A stretch of DNA of 25,838 nt from a virus (lineage: Duplodnaviria > Caudoviricetes): the IMG/VR virus record IMGVR_UViG_3300020045_006224, positions 1 through 25,838 of that record; one strand, 5' to 3'. Position numbers and translations under genes: made by a program. Below, piece after piece: positions 9,464 to 24,142 of the stretch (positions are counted from its first letter, which is position 1; each line of letters opens with the position of its first letter). The notes under the pieces are model-generated. The model was given only the letters and a program-made list of their open reading frames with translations. It did no database searches and was not told the DNA's origin.

Positions 9464-9495
9464 AAAACCACAATTTAATTATTGTGGTTTTTTTT
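9464..9495 (+). terminator. Intrinsic terminator
   Basis: AAAACCACAAT...ATTGTGGTTTT plus T run. Confidence 0.8.
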
Positions 9496-9498
9496 ATT

Positions 9499-9506
9499 TA
9501 TATTTG
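9499..9506 (+). promoter_or_regulatory. -7 promoter element for the tmRNA gene
   Basis: TATATTTG just upstream of the predicted acceptor piece. Confidence 0.65.
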
Positions 9507-9509
9507 CAC

Positions 9510-9757
9510 TAGTTCATTGACGATTTATGATTTTTACTAGGACGGGAGTTCGATTCTCCCCGCTTCCACGAAACGTGCCGTGTAGCGTGTTTGGTTTAGT
9601 CAGCCGATATATAAATGACTAATTCGGGGGCGACTGGCTTTGACTGTAAATTAAGAGTAAATAAGAGAACTAAAAAAAATAACCGTAAAAGTTATCAAAT
9701 TGAATAACGAGTCATTAAGAATGGCATCGTAATTCCGTAAAAAGAACGAAACTCTAA
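9510..9757 (+). ncRNA. ssrA: Circularly permuted (two-piece) tmRNA
   Basis: 3' module GAC-GGGAG-TTCGATT-CTCCC-CGCTTCC-A (9541-9568) precedes 5' module GGGGGCG-ACTGGCTTTGAC (9626-9644); G3.U70 pair; cross-piece pairing TAGTTC/GAACTA, ATTTAT/GTAAAT, TTTAC/GTAAA; tag frame 9685-9732. Confidence 0.88.
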
Positions 9758-9793
9758 AAAAATTCCCTATCATTAATTTGTTAGGGAATTTTT
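9758..9793 (+). terminator. Intrinsic terminator after tmRNA
   Basis: AAAATTCCCTA...TAGGGAATTTT. Confidence 0.75.
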
Positions 9794-9794
9794 G

Positions 9795-9802
9795 TATATT
9801 TG
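9795..9802 (+). promoter_or_regulatory. -7 promoter element
   Basis: TATATTTG 15 nt before the ATG at 9818. Confidence 0.55.
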
Positions 9803-9817
9803 TTAAAAATTACACCA

Positions 9818-11515
9818 ATGAAAAAAATACTTTTATTTTTACTTTTATCGATTGCGGGATACGGGCAGGTAAGCACCGGACAAGAACAGGACTTTCCTTA
9901 TGGCATTATTAATAGTGCAACTCAAACGGTTACAAATCCAAATACGTTAGTAACACAAGGAGCAGACGGCACTTATGGCAAAGCATCGGTAAATAACATA
10001 CCTATTTCTATTCCAGTACAAGACTCCCTAAACAAAAAACTAAACTTACCTACTGGATTTTTACAAGGGTTACAATTATCAATAAATGTTGATCCGACAA
10101 AGTTTAATATCGCATCAGGTTATTACGTGGTTACTGATTTTTCAACCTTGACTCAACCAGTTGTTAAAATTATATCTTATGCGGGTGCAACGGGATTAAG
10201 CCCGGCTTATCTATTAACCGCAAATAGTACGTATGTAGCTTTAGATATTAATGGTACGCTTGTATCGAGTGCATCACCTTTTACAGACGCTCAAAGGCGT
10301 ACATTGGCTTTAGTTGGGAATGTGGTGCACCCAAATCATACTACCATAAATAACACAAATGAGATTAAAGCCCCGATAGTTGCAATAGGTAATCAATTAC
10401 ACGACTTTATGAAAGCGATTGGTTTCTTAAATGAAAACGGAAATATATATAGCCCAAACGGTGCAAATTTAATGCTAAATAAATCATCTGGGGATATTTT
10501 TGGAATGGGTATAAACTCTGCGGACTATTTAAACCCACATAAATTAACGATACCAGCGCAAACCGCTTTAACTTTTGCGTATAGATTTCAAAATGGAGTT
10601 CAAACAGCAGACACACAAAATATTAACCCTAATATATACGATGTTGGCGGGGTTTCAACAGCCGTACCGGTTGGTAGTAGATGGACTGTTCAAAGAATCA
10701 ATTTATTTCAGTCAGGAATAGCACGCATACAACCGGGGCAAACTGTTTATACGTCATTTAACGATGCGGTTATGTCTTTACCTACGCAATCCTTCGTAAC
10801 TGAACAGAATATCGCTGATAATGCAGTATTTCGTTGTTATTTAATTGTTCAACAAGGCACGACAAATTTAGCTAGTGCAGTTGCAGGCGGTACAGCTCAA
10901 TTTGTGCCAGTTGATAAATTTGGAAATATTATTGGTAATGGTAGTGTTGCTTTGACGTATAGTAATATCGTAGCGGCTTTGGGATATACGCCGGCAAACG
11001 ATGCAGATGTGGTTAAATTGACAGGAGGTCAAACAATAGCAGGATTGAAAAATTTTACTACAGGATTAGTAAATTCAGACCCTGTGTTAACCGATAAAGC
11101 CGTAACAGTAGACAACGGAGTTCTTAAATTATCGAGTGGGGCAATTGAAGACCAATTAAGCATTTTAGCTTCAAACATAACAGCCGATAGGAGTGTGGAA
11201 TTTCCAGACGATAGCGGAACAGTAGCATTGACAAAATTAACAGTCCGTAAAATATCAACAAATACAACACTATCAAATACCGACAACGGAACAATAATTT
11301 TATTAACTGCATCATGTACCGTAACTTTGCCAAATGGATTAATGGGTGGTTTTAACTGTTCTTTTTCTACTCAAACAGGCGTAACAATGACATACGCGTT
11401 AGGCGGTTCAGTAGTTTTAATAAACAATACGGGAACAACAATGGCAGAAAAATTAAGCCATACAATTGTAAATACAGGGGTTTCAAACGAATATTTAACA
11501 GCAGGGTCATTATGA
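9818..11515 (+). CDS. Fibre/adhesin-like protein with predicted Sec signal peptide
   Basis: MKKILLFLLLSIAGYG-Q; fibre-like motifs ALGYTPAN and VKLTGGQTIAGLKNF. Confidence 0.65.
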   Translation: MKKILLFLLLSIAGYGQVSTGQEQDFPYGIINSATQTVTNPNTLVTQGADGTYGKASVNNIPISIPVQDSLNKKLNLPTGFLQGLQLSINVDPTKFNIASGYYVVTDFSTLTQPVVKIISYAGATGLSPAYLLTANSTYVALDINGTLVSSASPFTDAQRRTLALVGNVVHPNHTTINNTNEIKAPIVAIGNQLHDFMKAIGFLNENGNIYSPNGANLMLNKSSGDIFGMGINSADYLNPHKLTIPAQTALTFAYRFQNGVQTADTQNINPNIYDVGGVSTAVPVGSRWTVQRINLFQSGIARIQPGQTVYTSFNDAVMSLPTQSFVTEQNIADNAVFRCYLIVQQGTTNLASAVAGGTAQFVPVDKFGNIIGNGSVALTYSNIVAALGYTPANDADVVKLTGGQTIAGLKNFTTGLVNSDPVLTDKAVTVDNGVLKLSSGAIEDQLSILASNITADRSVEFPDDSGTVALTKLTVRKISTNTTLSNTDNGTIILLTASCTVTLPNGLMGGFNCSFSTQTGVTMTYALGGSVVLINNTGTTMAEKLSHTIVNTGVSNEYLTAGSL

Positions 11516-14889: not shown

Positions 14890-15317
14890 GACTACTAATT
14901 TCCACTATTTTAGCAATTATCATTTTATCGTTTCTATTTGGATGCGGAACTCGTAAAACCGATAATAAATACCATGAAATAAAGTCTAATTATCTATTTA
15001 ATGATAGTTCGTATATATTAACTCAAAATATTAGATTAAATGACATAGGAGAGCTTATGCCAATTGACAATACAAAGCCTTTCTTTGTAGATGGAAAAAA
15101 ATATTTCAATGTTTCAATAAAATTTGATAAATCAAAATTTGAAGATTTTGAATTGAATAAAAAAAATATTGGAACTACGTCTGGAAAATCTGAAATTTTA
15201 GATAATAAAACAACAGAAAAAACCGATAATACATTTCTATATATCGGTTTATTTTTAGTATTAATATTAGGCATTTTAGCTTGGTTTAAATTGCCTAGTT
15301 TTAGAAAGGGCATTTAG
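14886..15317 (+). CDS. Putative unimolecular spanin
   Basis: Start re-called at ATG 14886; lipobox LFG-C plus C-terminal TM; follows the endolysin. Confidence 0.7.
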   Translation: MRLLISTILAIIILSFLFGCGTRKTDNKYHEIKSNYLFNDSSYILTQNIRLNDIGELMPIDNTKPFFVDGKKYFNVSIKFDKSKFEDFELNKKNIGTTSGKSEILDNKTTEKTDNTFLYIGLFLVLILGILAWFKLPSFRKGI

Positions 15318-15480
15318 ATTTTTCTTTAGGAATTAGACCGTCATACTCTCGTTTAATCTTTTCAGCTATTGCATCCCGGCAAAACTTACCCACATCGACA
15401 TTATAAGACTTCATTTTTACCAATGTGCGGTGCTGTGTTTCTGAAATACGTATAACCTTTGTTTTAGTGAGTAGTTTCAT
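15301..15480 (-). CDS. 59 aa RHH-like DNA-binding protein (not in ORF track)
   Basis: MKLLTKTKVIRISETQHRTLVKMKSYNVDVGKFCRDAIAEKIKREYDGLIPKEKSKCPF; strand-helix-helix pattern. Confidence 0.65.
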   Translation of the reverse strand: MKLLTKTKVIRISETQHRTLVKMKSYNVDVGKFCRDAIAEKIKREYDGLIPKEKSKCPF

Positions 15481-15519
15481 AATTGTAATACATTTATAGC
15501 TGTTAGCGAGTAGTTATGC
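15464..15519 (+). other. attI-like terminal half site
   Basis: Core GTTATGC at 15513 without a preceding hairpin; direct repeat TTAGYGAGTAGTT at 15464-15476 and 15503-15515. Confidence 0.5.
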
Positions 15520-15528
15520 CTAATACTA

Positions 15529-15741
15529 CTATGCGTGAGTATCACCAGCCAATCTCCAAGAATTTACATCTTTAAAAAACAATTGTTCTCCGCTATCAAT
15601 TTGAGTGAAAACAATTCCTTTTCTAACGAAATTACAATCTCTTACAACTGTATCGTTGTTTATTAAAACATCATATAAAAACCCTCCTTCTTGTGGTTTC
15701 TTTGCTCTTAAAGATTTCCACGATTGCAATCTTTTTGCCAT
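15529..15741 (-). CDS. Cassette 1 hypothetical protein
   Basis: 70 aa; stop abuts the cassette boundary. Confidence 0.7.
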   Translation of the reverse strand: MAKRLQSWKSLRAKKPQEGGFLYDVLINNDTVVRDCNFVRKGIVFTQIDSGEQLFFKDVNSWRLAGDTHA

Positions 15742-15792
15742 AATTATTTTTTGTTTATTGTTTATTGTTAATATTTACTTTTGCCGTACTAG

Positions 15793-15872
15793 GCATAACA
15801 GCGGTTACATTTCAGCAGCCGAAATCTCGTAGCTGGATAGGCTGCCGAAACTGTAGCCGCAGGACGTTGTAG
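15793..15872 (+). repeat. attC-like site 1 (80 bp)
   Basis: GCATAAC-A-GCGGTTACATTTCAGCAGCC...GGCTGCCGAAACTGTAGCCGC-AGGAC-GTTGTAG. Confidence 0.8.
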
Positions 15873-15913
15873 GTAAGTTTGCTCAACTTTGTAGCCAAAG
15901 CTACGTAGGTGTT

Positions 15914-16072
15914 TTAAAATATAGGTTTTCCGTTCTTATTTATAGGAATTCCTGTAATTGTGCGTGTTTCACGTTTTGTATTAAGTGAAATATATTTTCT
16001 TTTCCCTTTAAGAAGCTCTTTAACTTTTGTTCTATGATAATCTCCTTCGTACAATCTATTTCTAATTTCCAT
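15914..16072 (-). CDS. Cassette 2 ORF b, 52 aa basic protein (not in ORF track)
   Basis: MEIRNRLYEGDYHRTKVKELLKGKRKYISLNTKRETRTITGIPINKNGKPIF with A-rich leader. Confidence 0.55.
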   Translation of the reverse strand: MEIRNRLYEGDYHRTKVKELLKGKRKYISLNTKRETRTITGIPINKNGKPIF

Positions 16073-16091
16073 TTTATTTATATTTTATTTT

Positions 16092-16235
16092 TTAGTCTTT
16101 CCATTCTGACCATTGTTGCATTTTTACAACTTCTAAGTTTCTCAATTCTAGTTCTTCACTTTCAGATAATGAAATTTTCTTTTTTAATTCATCTATTCTG
16201 TAAATTGTTTTAAATAATTTTTCTTTTGCATTCAT
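16092..16235 (-). CDS. Cassette 2 ORF a, 47 aa (not in ORF track)
   Basis: MNAKEKLFKTIYRIDELKKKISLSESEELELRNLEVVKMQQWSEWKD. Confidence 0.55.
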   Translation of the reverse strand: MNAKEKLFKTIYRIDELKKKISLSESEELELRNLEVVKMQQWSEWKD

Positions 16236-16260
16236 AATTCGTGTGATTTAAAAAACCTAC

Positions 16261-16391
16261 CTACAACAATATATTGTACTTATAGCTAGATTTTGGTTTA
16301 ATTTATTGATTTGTAATTCTTGTTATTATTAGTTTTTAACCGTTTTATTGTCTTGTGTCAGTCGCTACAAGTACAATAATTGACGTTAGTA
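16261..16391 (+). repeat. attC-like site 2 (131 bp)
   Basis: CTACAAC...ATTGTACTTATAGC...GCTACAAGTACAAT...GTTAGTA. Confidence 0.75.
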
Positions 16392-16397
16392 GCAAGA

Positions 16398-16538
16398 CTA
16401 TGATTCGCTTTTAATAGAAACTATTTCGTATTCTAGTTTCATTATTTTGTAGTTTTTTTCATCTATCGAGTTATTAATACTGTTTTTAATTTTTTCAATT
16501 TCTTTTTCAAGTATTTTTATTCTAAATTCATTTTCCAT
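16398..16538 (-). CDS. Cassette 3 ORF, 46 aa coiled-coil-like (not in ORF track)
   Basis: MENEFRIKILEKEIEKIKNSINNSIDEKNYKIMKLEYEIVSIKSES; stop abuts the boundary. Confidence 0.6.
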   Translation of the reverse strand: MENEFRIKILEKEIEKIKNSINNSIDEKNYKIMKLEYEIVSIKSES

Positions 16539-16585
16539 TTTTATTTATTTTTTATAAGTTAATTTATCTTTAATATCCGTCCAGC

Positions 16586-16715
16586 TACTAACATACGATT
16601 GTAGCAAGTGGATTTTAGTCTTTAATTTAAACATAGTTTTGTACTTTTAAGATTAGTCATTAATTTAATTTTCAGGATTTATCTTTTCCACCTGCTACAA
16701 TCTTTCCCGTTAGGT
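16586..16715 (+). repeat. attC-like site 3 (130 bp)
   Basis: TACTAAC...GATTGTAGCAAGTGGA...TCCACCTGCTACAATC...GTTAGGT. Confidence 0.8.
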
Positions 16716-16721
16716 GTAATA

Positions 16722-17132
16722 CTAATCATCGTAGTAATTAGAAGGTTCTCGTTCCTTAATGAAATACTTACACCATTTTACTATATGGTTATTGTATAAT
16801 TCAGAAAGTTCTGCAATATCTTCGCCCCAATATTCATCATCAGTAAAATACAATCTACCTTCCCAAACACCTCTCCAGCAAAACGAACCTTCTAATTTTT
16901 TCAAGCATTTATCTTCTTCAAATATTTCTCGTTCATCAGGTTCATTTTCTTTATCAATATAACTTGTTCCTTCTTTTCCAGTCGGTAAATGTTTCCAATC
17001 TTGAACTGGGTAAACTTCAAATTCTAATCTATATGCATCTGTTTTAAAATGAATTACATAATCCATCATTCTAACCCGTACTACACCTAACAGCGGTTTT
17101 GAGCAAGCGGGTATTTGGTTTAATTCAGTCAT
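16722..17132 (-). CDS. Cassette 4 hypothetical protein
   Basis: 136 aa; first ATG lies inside attC-like site 4. Confidence 0.75.
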   Translation of the reverse strand: MTELNQIPACSKPLLGVVRVRMMDYVIHFKTDAYRLEFEVYPVQDWKHLPTGKEGTSYIDKENEPDEREIFEEDKCLKKLEGSFCWRGVWEGRLYFTDDEYWGEDIAELSELYNNHIVKWCKYFIKEREPSNYYDD

Positions 17133-17214
17133 TGTTTTGTATTTTTATTATTTGTGATTAATTCAATTATTCGGTTTTATTTTCCCGCCTGCACAAAGCC
17201 GCCGAACGTTAGCA
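17085..17214 (+). repeat. attC-like site 4 (130 bp)
   Basis: ACCTAAC-A-GCGGTTTTGAGCAAGCGGG...CCCGCCTGCACAAAGCCGC-CGAAC-GTTAGCA. Confidence 0.8.
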
Positions 17215-17218
17215 GTAA

Positions 17219-17455
17219 TTACAACTCTGCCCAGTGAGTAACTATATTTTCAGTCATAAAACCTAAAATATTCCTGTTTGGTCTATTTCTAAATGGTTTT
17301 TCATCTTCCGAACCATCAGTAAATTTTACACGGTAGTAATCTTCTTTTTTTGGAAGTCTATCGTGAATACTTATCCAATTAACTACTGCTAACAGTGGTT
17401 TTGACTTATTGCCGTTTTCGGCTGTATTTTCAGTTGGTTTTGTACTTGTATTCAT
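17219..17455 (-). CDS. Cassette 5 DUF551-like protein
   Basis: WISIHDRLP...VTHW motif; start inside attC-like site 5. Confidence 0.7.
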   Translation of the reverse strand: MNTSTKPTENTAENGNKSKPLLAVVNWISIHDRLPKKEDYYRVKFTDGSEDEKPFRNRPNRNILGFMTENIVTHWAEL

Positions 17456-17520
17456 TGTGTTTAATTTAAAGATTAGGTCTTATTTTATCGGCAACAAGAC
17501 AAAGCCACGATACGTTAGTA
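17387..17520 (+). repeat. attC-like site 5 (134 bp)
   Basis: TGCTAAC-A-GTGGTTTTGACTTATTGCCG...CGGCAACAAGACAAAGCCAC-GATAC-GTTAGTA. Confidence 0.8.
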
Positions 17521-17526
17521 GCAAGA

Positions 17527-17775
17527 CTACGAGTTGTATTCAAACCACATATAAACATCGTCGTAAAATGGTATTAAAAACTCACCTCGCCCACAATCTT
17601 CATCATAAATTTCACTCCAATTGTATTCGTGATTAAAGCTTTGTTCTTCTACATCTTGTTTTTTGAATTTATTAGGGTCAATATCTCCATATTCCACAAC
17701 TCCAATCATTGCTACATAAGATAAATCTTCTCTCAAATAATCAAATGCTTCTGTAATTTTTTCTTGTATTGTCAT
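17527..17775 (-). CDS. Cassette 6 acidic hypothetical protein
   Basis: 82 aa; stop abuts the boundary. Confidence 0.7.
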   Translation of the reverse strand: MTIQEKITEAFDYLREDLSYVAMIGVVEYGDIDPNKFKKQDVEEQSFNHEYNWSEIYDEDCGRGEFLIPFYDDVYMWFEYNS

Positions 17776-17821
17776 TTCGTTTAGTTTTATAATTAATATT
17801 TGTTTTAAATTGCCGTCCTAC

Positions 17822-17901
17822 CACTAACAGCGGTTACATTTCAGTAACCGGAAGCGTGTTGGTGTATAGGCTGCCGAAATTGTAGCCGCATGGCGTTAGG
17901 A
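17822..17901 (+). repeat. attC-like site 6 (80 bp), close relative of site 1
   Basis: Shares TAACAGCGGTTACATTTCAG and ATAGGCTGCCGAAAYTGTAGCCGCA with site 1. Confidence 0.8.
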
Positions 17902-17907
17902 AACAGC

Positions 17908-23143: not shown

Positions 23144-23406
23144 AACGAATTTCGCAAATTGCAAAAGAATGTAAATTGACTTACGAAAAAACATACCGTA
23201 CAATGGTGGTTAACAAAATAATTCCAACAAATATAAACGGATTTTGTTTTTTAGATACATATCAAGAAGAACTTTTACACTATTGCCTTTATCGAATTGG
23301 AGTTTTAGAAGAAGTTGTTTTTGAAAGTAAAATTAATCATATTGAGACAAAAGAGGAAAAACAGGAAGCGTTTAGAAAATTTAAAAAAGAAACTTATGGA
23401 AAATAA
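23140..23406 (+). CDS. Possible HTH DNA-binding protein
   Basis: N-terminal ISQIAKECKLTYEKTYR. Confidence 0.5.
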   Translation: MKRISQIAKECKLTYEKTYRTMVVNKIIPTNINGFCFLDTYQEELLHYCLYRIGVLEEVVFESKINHIETKEEKQEAFRKFKKETYGK

Positions 23407-24142
23407 TAAAAAAACAATAGCAGTTTGGTTTAGTTGCGGTGTTGCTTCGGCAATTGCATTAAAAAAAACAGTTGAAATTTATGGAAATACGCATAACATT
23501 TTAGCCGTGAATAACCCAGTAAAAGAAGAGCATCCAGATAATATACGTTTCAAAAATGATATTTCTAAATGGGTAGGTATTGAAATAATAGAAGCAAAGT
23601 GCTTAGAATTTCCTAATGCTTCAATAGTTGAGGTTTTTGATAAAAGAAAATATGTTTCTGGAGTTGCTGGCGCACCATGCACAAAGTTTTTAAAAAAACA
23701 AGCCCGTTATGAATTTGAAAAAAATAATAAAATTGATTTTCACGTTTTAGGATTTACTTTGGAAGAACAAAATAGATACGATAGATTTATAAAATTTGAA
23801 AGAGGAAATGTTATAGGTGTTTTAATTGATGAAAAATTAACTAAAATAGATTGTTTTAATATTTTGTCAGATTCCGGAATAAAAAGACCGTTAATTTATG
23901 AATTAGGATTTCCAAATGCAAACTGTATAGGATGTGTCAAAAGCCAGTCGCCAACTTATTGGAATTTAGTTCGTAAAACATTCCCAGACGTATTTGAACA
24001 ACGTTCTGAACAAAGTAAACGTATTGGATGTAAATTGGTAAAAGTAAAAGGAAAAAGAATTTTTTTGGATGAATTGAAGCCAACAGATAAAGGAGGTAAG
24101 ATTAAAAGTTACGATTGTGGTATTTTCTGTGAAACTAAATAA
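23396..24142 (+). CDS. PAPS-reductase-like / adenine nucleotide alpha-hydrolase family protein
   Basis: WFSCGVASA PP-loop-like motif, APCTKFLK, NCIGCVK, CGIFCE; start re-called at ATG 23396. Confidence 0.75.
   Translation: MENNKKTIAVWFSCGVASAIALKKTVEIYGNTHNILAVNNPVKEEHPDNIRFKNDISKWVGIEIIEAKCLEFPNASIVEVFDKRKYVSGVAGAPCTKFLKKQARYEFEKNNKIDFHVLGFTLEEQNRYDRFIKFERGNVIGVLIDEKLTKIDCFNILSDSGIKRPLIYELGFPNANCIGCVKSQSPTYWNLVRKTFPDVFEQRSEQSKRIGCKLVKVKGKRIFLDELKPTDKGGKIKSYDCGIFCETK

Follow-up and report, generated by a model that had tools for sequence, protein, structure and literature searches.

Mobile cassettes of an integron-like system shared by Bacteroidota and their phages

The phage record IMGVR_UViG_3300020045_006224 (G000; linear, 25,838 bp, 66% complete), referred to here in its whole length as the window, includes a run of small genes separated by six hairpins, and raises the question of whether these genes are mobile cassettes comparable to those of the integrons and, if so, which recombinase moves them. 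The original prediction, made from the sequence alone, took the locus for an integron-like array without an integrase, whose small accessory genes are gained, lost and shuffled by a recombinase supplied in trans. The array is real and mobile, and it is part of an integron-like system shared by Bacteroidota and their phages. We consider it probable that the locus combines six cassettes and a fixed entry site with turnover of whole cassettes at G|TT, and that an IntI-related tyrosine recombinase of the host cuts it in trans on folded single-stranded hairpins. Labels such as L020 or L237 designate loci compared with the window record G000.

The cassette array and its turnover

Six hairpins with AAC and GTT ends, all on the + strand, span nucleotides 15797-17897 and measure 72-126 nt each from AAC to GTT. 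The original prediction gave 80-134 bp, which is the same length plus four flanking bases per side, and the separation of small genes by these hairpins was confirmed. Its claim that a cassette start matches the end of the same cassette held as well: the 11 bases after the opening GTT agreed with the reverse complement of the 11 before the closing AAC at 10, 10, 9, 10, 10, and 8 positions in cassettes 1 to 6, that is, at 8-10 of 11 in all six. Pairings between starts and ends of different window cassettes scored 2-8 of 11, plus one 9 that arises because cassettes 3 and 6 start identically. All six hairpins reached at least 15 in a flexible detector; 12 composition-matched shuffles of the window gave no site at or above 15 and 15 sites at or above 12. 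In the window itself, two unrelated stretches score 15.0 as well, so that the score alone is unspecific; clustering, a single strand and end matching are the specific traits.

The original prediction recognized the six cassettes and overlooked the entry site. The first junction, corrected to a G at 15513, is not preceded by a hairpin, and the arm at the right end lacks a partner; the unit is therefore arm, gene, arm and hairpin, with + as the top strand. Read from the junctions, a cassette consists of a TT-arm, the gene, the inverted arm, AAC, the hairpin, and G. The terminal arm after the last G|TT (17896..17907, + strand) carries the signature of a cassette start, and its best partner among 57 AAC sites up to 20500 matched at 6/11; the backbone to its right is common to the window and L073. 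At the other end, the putative attI-like entry site occupies 15478..15524 on the + strand, with the crossover G|TT at 15513/15514, and is always adjoined by a 59-aa ribbon-helix-helix (RHH)-like gene (15301..15480, - strand, PHROG 25647), through which 58 IMG/VR loci were collected. About 35 bases between the start codon of this gene and G|TT are conserved, and divergence begins directly after GTTA (55 of the 58 loci aligned). The entry-site pattern, for which a profile was built from 44 distinct sites, is present in 49 loci. At least one hairpin was found in 47, and nine of the 11 hairpin-less loci have less than 330 nt of sequence there; no empty entry site was identified among the 58, L024 and L031 being without a detected hairpin. 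By this conservation, the region behaves as an attI-like entry site with a G|TT crossover.

The end rule extends beyond the window. The 58 loci yielded 133 cassettes, of which 124 reach at least 7/11 in the match between their own ends; for the 114 distinct cassettes kept at this threshold the own match is 9.2 versus 4.1 for cross pairings, and opposite ends of the same hairpin match at only 4.3/11. Position 11 is an A in all 114 and is mismatched in 113; in host cassettes, described below, it is mismatched in 160/160. Of 50 aligned sites, 49 have this fixed mismatch in the inner box as well, and the mismatch was not selected by the detector, although the inner stem itself was, so that the covariation of that stem is partly a product of selection. 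Each box follows the pattern TTW-N6-A, the A always lying opposite the mismatch. On the 5' arm, 11-bp boxes surround a 6-nt spacer, and in the window the 3' spacer exceeds the 5' one by 2-4 nt. The arm consensus may resemble an XerD box. Of 163 phage junction models, 97.5% have the more stable fold on the bottom strand. We also considered phage cassettes as simply inverted host cassettes and rejected this, the position-11 asymmetry being identical in both.

Site-specific gain, loss and shuffling, as predicted, could be followed across related phages, which vary by whole cassettes with breakpoints at G|TT. L020 and L021 differ by the presence or absence of an 811-bp cassette, exactly from G|TT to G|TT, within flanks that are 99.7-100% identical. 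L041, L043 and L044 share 99% identity as far as the entry site and diverge beyond it, and pairs of 99% identical phages break at G+3 to G+11 of that site. Cassette 4 of the window is found whole in L237, 93% identical from G|TT to G|TT and among other neighbours; the cassette 1 body (15513-15802) has other flanks in a contig of run X2; the cassette 2 hairpin is 89% alike in L002; and the cassette 6 body is 97.8% identical in L073/L165, where it has another position and another hairpin, the joint lying within a short shared stretch. In five pairs the hairpin moves together with the body on its left, in none with the body on its right.

Cultured Baltic Muminvirus isolates carry 10-15 detected hairpin units, and the difference between mumin6-1 and mumin6-3 is an exact 506-bp cassette, again from G|TT to G|TT. 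Cassette A can be first, second or third in these phages and K stands before or after F-G, and the distal cassettes H-I-J are common to all seven isolates compared. Along these alignments, variation concentrates at the entry-site end and distal cassettes stay. In the 65 loci with a verified cassette, out of 157 examined and with 13 duplicates dropped, 33 of 42 ends of alignments with at least 92% identity fall within 12 nt of G|TT versus 7% expected, a count of pairs and not of independent events, which lessens its weight. The predicted breakpoints at G|TT are thus the majority, and a minority lies at the AAC arm or inside hairpins. Taken over these comparisons, movement of cassettes at G|TT is very probable. 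Contigs of four sequencing runs gave array pieces and re-joined ends and no direct circle; the re-joined ends were left uncounted because most come from other phages sharing arms. No sequencing run was found that contains half of the window array, and none of those listed is an RNA run.

Every open reading frame (ORF) of the six + strand cassettes is on the - strand. Cassette 1 (15514..15866) has a 70-aa ORF (15529-15741) and a short hairpin (15797-15868), and cassette 6 (17515..17895) an 82-aa ORF (17527-17775) and a short hairpin (17826-17897). Two cassettes hold more than one ORF, a correction to the original prediction: cassette 2 (15867..16385) contains two ORFs (15914-16072 and 16092-16235) and a long hairpin (16265-16387), and cassette 3 (16386..16709) a 46-aa ORF (16398-16538), a 29-aa leader ORF (16545-16634) that begins in the hairpin loop, and a long hairpin (16590-16711). 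The 136-aa ORF of cassette 4 (16710..17208; ORF 16722-17132, PHROG 38298) has its first ATG inside the hairpin (17089-17210) and two internal ATGs at codons 22-23. Cassette 5 (17209..17514) carries a 78-aa DUF551-like ORF (17219-17455), the match beginning at residue 27 and lying below the cut-off; its sole usable start is inside the hairpin (17391-17516), with no ATG, GTG or TTG between codons 2 and 66. No immunity family was found among the window cassette ORFs with Pfam and PHROGs.

The window encodes tail, lysis and early genes, including an exonuclease, and the array sits between the lysis genes (+ strand) and a leftward-reading run of small early genes (- strand). Flavobacterium phages make up 48 of the 65 records with DNA matches to the window, and by these matches the window phage is of the Flavobacterium type. 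The RHH-like gene matched DUF6290 in 18 of 20 homologues, below the cut-off; the model of its protein (predicted local distance difference test score, 75) gave weak fold matches mainly to RHH proteins, with Z of 4.6 or less. An RHH-like gene adjoins the array in Muminvirus too, and such a gene lies next to the entry site in two phage groups (window 15301-15513; L153 1787-2038). A conserved GTAATAC motif is located between the start of the gene and the entry site (window 15301-15513; L153 1787-2038), and may be a putative operator of the gene. In L035 and L049 (8001-8558) the RHH-like ORF continues in frame into a lipoprotein-like gene. Elsewhere the window has a permuted two-piece transfer-messenger RNA (tmRNA) at 9475-10003 (Rfam tmRNA_permuted, 54.9 bits with a cut-off of 47; tmRNA* in ARAGORN), a tRNA-Leu(CAA) at 862-951 between tail genes, and a PAPS-reductase-like gene (PHROG 424) in the early region at 23315-24142.

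Host arrays and a candidate recombinase

The expectation of a phage array without an integrase agrees with a PF00589 search, which matched no tyrosine recombinase in two complete array-bearing phages or in the window, the latter being a contig 66% complete. In two proviruses the only integrase is a 400-aa protein of another kind. A pattern derived from hairpin 4 matched 43 stretches of bacterial genomes, mostly of Flavobacterium and many with long arrays; in the chromosomes of Flavobacteriaceae, sites of this family are strung into long arrays next to an IntI-related tyrosine recombinase. L090 is one example, its array beginning 155 nt behind a tyrosine recombinase of 356 aa; in most same-strand cases host arrays begin 39-157 nt past the recombinase stop codon, at an attI-like site. 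The IntI-like enzyme sought in the original prediction is represented in host chromosomes by this array-linked, IntI-related family, which is not IntI itself.

The candidate recombinase scored 211.8 bits with TIGR02249 (IntI), for which the cut-off is 265, and was below the XerC/XerD cut-offs (TIGR02224/TIGR02225). Its best sequence match in the PDB is VchIntI4; it aligns to IntI4 residues 14-205 and 246-319, with residues 206-245 absent and nothing between. The catalytic R, K, H-x-x-R, H, and Y are invariant in 26/26 homologues. A fold search with the predicted structure gave Z 21.4 for IntI4 (root mean square deviation 4.2, 258 residues aligned) and Z 21.2 for the archaeal XerA, a tie that does not rank one over the other. 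Relative to IntI4 the enzyme has an extra N-terminal domain, which may resemble a HARP-like fold; its N-terminal 65 residues matched no named family and were barely covered by the fold search.

Hairpins were detected in 38 of 40 genomes of one Bacteroidota family. A single-query search matched the recombinase in 71 of 151 genomes of the bacterial family, and a profile search recovered 12 more family members among 20 tested single-query negatives. A hairpin lies within 1.5 kb of 21 of 34 recombinase loci, a count that is partly circular because some of those sites trained the hairpin model; in genomes outside the model, this was the case for six of 12 full-length family loci, one of 12 shorter Xer-like loci, and neither of two prophage integrases. 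None of the eight best Xer-type loci (L266-L273) has a nearby hairpin. The array-linked host recombinase likely acts on the phage sites in trans.

When 50,697 phage records were searched with the recombinase, the best matches were integrases, 28-41% identical, and none of the best 20 of 21 matches came from a Flavobacterium phage. Five IMG/VR contigs (L114-L118), either phage DNA or host flank, encode a recombinase of 40-41% identity and have hairpins on the opposite strand, upstream of it. On plasmid NZ_CP104735 (L155 3620-5117), a truncated recombinase of the candidate enzyme's family (49% identity; annotated as TnpF in FJ012881) precedes tet(X3); this tet(X3) resembles a first cassette, with an entry-site-like G|TT before it, an arm and a hairpin start after it, and ends that match at about 7/11 by eye. 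The region G010:C1:683184-742611 includes several tyrosine recombinase-like genes of about 300 aa, about 7.5 kb apart.

Gene starts, proposed mechanism and rival explanations

The likeness to classical cassettes ends with the genes, which in the phages are inverted and in many cases have their start within the hairpin of the same cassette. Relative to the sites, 112/113 phage cassette ORFs run antisense, versus 151/158 host cassette ORFs that run sense; the phage genes are directed at the entry site and share the orientation of the early operon around them. A loop ATG opening a frame that runs at least 30 codons past the arm is found in 54 of 117 phage long hairpins versus 8 of 181 in hosts, and 28 of these 54 frames have no Met in the next 25 codons. 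An A at -3, a positive determinant in F. johnsoniae according to PMC6847099, precedes 41 of 64 such loop ATGs versus 29 of 69 other loop ATGs. The -7 promoter box TAnnTTTG (PMC9723704) occurs in the top strand of 142 of 181 long hairpins from hosts versus 19 of 117 from phages. Scanning for sigma-70 promoters yielded 15 sites where 22 were expected and was not informative. From the hairpin counts we infer that translation and transcription may start inside hairpins. The leader peptide of cassette 5 occurs also on unrelated bodies in L050 and L047. In L020, L029 and L006 one methyltransferase-like body has three different hairpin-encoded N-terminal leaders.

In the proposed mechanism, the host enzyme would excise a cassette between hairpins; the cassette would close to a circle in which its two 11-bp arms pair, completing a two-box site; and during infection the enzyme would insert the circle into the phage genome at the entry site. 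Analogy with integrons and its more stable folding both point to the bottom strand as the probable substrate. The long hairpin loop could present a -7 promoter box facing the next cassette in hosts, and in phages its other strand could give an A-rich start region and an ATG for the gene of its own cassette. A wider proposal, to which we give even chances, is that these arrays define a second, mostly overlooked class of integron in Bacteroidota, with an insertion-less sister recombinase of IntI and 11-bp boxes marked by a mismatch, that phages having their own entry sites and an antisense cassette pool hijack it during infection, and that the hairpin is also a swappable translation start, so that shuffling of cassettes and leaders tunes anti-restriction and other early genes.

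Several observations weigh against host-driven movement of whole cassettes as the full account. The cassette 4 body has other hairpins in L236, L238, L240 and L243, and bodies are often combined with differing hairpins from phage to phage, the break then lying at AACA. In 48 of 66 near-identical hairpin pairs neither flank is shared, one Muminvirus hairpin (mumin6-1) is chimeric, joined 26 nt from G|TT, and the remaining nine of the 42 alignment ends lie at AAC (four) or elsewhere (five). The hairpin swaps, unshared flanks and chimeric hairpin imply a second exchange route, and by the same comparisons movement of whole cassettes accounts for only part of the change. Some junctions have the look of microhomology exchange; this less precise route, using the AAC arm or microhomology between hairpins, would exchange hairpins and, along with them, N-terminal leaders. 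As to the enzyme, its alignment indicates that it is without the insertion linked to single-strand recombination in IntI. Its link to the sites is one of adjacency and not of strict co-occurrence, because hairpins are present in seven of eight genomes without a detected family member; strict co-occurrence was tried and failed on these genomes and on the single-query negatives, which hid 12 of 20 members. Finally, 163 phage and 182 host cassette bodies gave no match with one another, and cargo exchange with hosts is therefore without support.

Part of this evidence would suit arrays that were built by ancient site-specific insertion and now change mostly through phage-encoded short-homology recombination: the window has an exonuclease, its body 6 was joined to another hairpin within a short shared stretch, mumin6-1 has its chimeric hairpin, and nine of 42 alignment ends are away from G|TT. 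We regard such a history as unlikely, since the exact 811-bp and 506-bp differences join unlike hairpins sharing only the GTTA core, 99% identical phages swap the first cassette at an entry site that has no hairpin, and own-end matching with its invariant mismatch is kept in 113 of 114 cassettes. Movement at G|TT could otherwise be the work of the housekeeping XerC/XerD of the host, as for Xer-exploiting elements with a folded single-stranded site, or of another recombinase. The absence of nearby hairpins at all eight Xer-type loci, against six of 12 family loci with one, and the start of host arrays at an attI-like site just after the family gene make this quite unlikely, even though hairpins in enzyme-negative genomes, the 5'-arm layout of 11-bp boxes with a 6-nt spacer between them, and a possible likeness of the arm consensus to an XerD box would fit it; many of those genomes are fragmented assemblies that may lose the gene.

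It is very improbable that the hairpins are elements of RNA processing, termination or translation control whose mobility as DNA is incidental. The start codons with A at -3 in their loops and the covarying inner stem, itself partly selected, speak for such a role; against it, the outer arms pair with their own cassette across 300-1500 nt and not with the neighbouring arm, the same sites are sense in hosts and antisense in phages, and the exact junctions at G|TT already largely refute it. An Rfam search found no family matching the hairpins in the window or in five array-rich loci, and gave no support to Flavo-1 RNA as their identity. That a phage captured once an inert fragment of a host chromosomal array is extremely improbable: the same site family does occur in Flavobacterium chromosomes, but the genes have the opposite orientation, no body is common to phages and hosts, dozens of phages have different arrays at this one locus, and the variation among near-identical phages refutes inertness.

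Significance and relation to known systems

Integrons are thought to be near-absent from Bacteroidetes, and the IntegronFinder 2.0 survey names one complete integron there, yet sites of the present kind were detected in 38 of 40 genomes from a single family of this phylum. Movement of cassettes by a host IntI-related recombinase would give phages a plug-in system for accessory genes, and would explain how Flavobacterium phages come to have rows of very small, variable early genes. If true, it also means that recombination at single-strand sites can work without the IntI insertion. The system is present in cultured lytic phages, whose cultured phage-host pairs are a ready test system. Muminvirus arrays hold DNA methyltransferases, one of which, mumin6-1 gp013, has its annotated start inside its hairpin. 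Judging from Table S13 of PMC7077304, gp013 would be the gene missing from lillamy9-1 and morran9-1, two phages that, according to the same paper, plate poorly on LMO6 after growth on LMO9. The words integron and cassette are absent from the accessible text of this paper by Nilsson et al. A literature search, thin on subscription journals, found no published description of the site family, the entry site or the inverted phage arrays.

In form, the window array resembles the clusters of attC sites lacking integrases (CALINs), as a site cluster for which no recombinase was found in a contig 66% complete. Qi et al. (2023; PMC9892861) described attC-like clusters without integrase in virulent phages, with methyltransferase cargo; their accessible text and tables list 17 CALINs, none in a Flavobacterium phage, and describe no entry site, inverted genes or movement among relatives. 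Their P12002L_attC1, the only one of six sites without a verified IntI1 junction in the accessible material, fits our detector with an own-end match of 9/11, and the long-hairpin model had no match in P12002L.

Also close to the present system is rAID-1 of Bacteroidales, for which Ross et al. (2019; bioRxiv 10.1101/471110) describe a 5' XerD-like recombinase, more than 44% identical to BF9343_RS08045, and behind it arrays of co-directional genes with integron-like intergenic repeats. At an rAID-1-like locus with immunity genes on a Parabacteroides plasmid (L156 6810-12460), the recombinase is 44.9% identical to the L090 enzyme, the hairpins are short, and cassette ends match by eye, the junction being ATT and not GTT; this suggests the same recombinase family and end rule as in the Flavobacterium system, and links rAID-1 to a defined cassette rule. 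As far as that account is accessible, it gives no cassette boundaries, hairpin model or phage arrays, and rAID-1 is chromosomal or plasmid-borne, with sense genes and immunity cargo, whereas the window genes point toward the entry site and immunity families were not found among them.

In common with classical integrons, as far as the accessible texts describe them (PMC8946536; bioRxiv 10.1101/2022.02.28.482270), the present system has a fixed entry site, a G|TT crossover, hairpin cassettes matching their own ends, and new cassettes at the entry end. The spacing of the 5' arm (AAC + 5 nt + WTT) equals by eye that of the aadA7 control in Table S3 of Qi et al. (PMC9892861), and host arrays, like classical integrons, have sense genes (151/158). 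The integron-like character claimed in the original prediction thus stands for movement at G|TT and own-end matching; the sites deviate from canonical attC, and the candidate host enzyme from canonical IntI. Unlike in attC, with its 5/6-nt spacers, the 3' spacer is longer than the 5' one by 2-4 nt and not by 1, an invariant A mismatch in both boxes takes the place of the extra base in L'', and the matched arms of 11-14 bp differ from those of the classical integron. Unlike IntI, the candidate enzyme lacks about 40 residues (IntI4 206-245) and has the additional N-terminal domain. Classical integron genes are sense and read from the attI promoter, whereas the phage genes are antisense and may start in the hairpin. 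The system works like an integron, and it departs from that class in its enzyme, its site geometry and the orientation of its genes.

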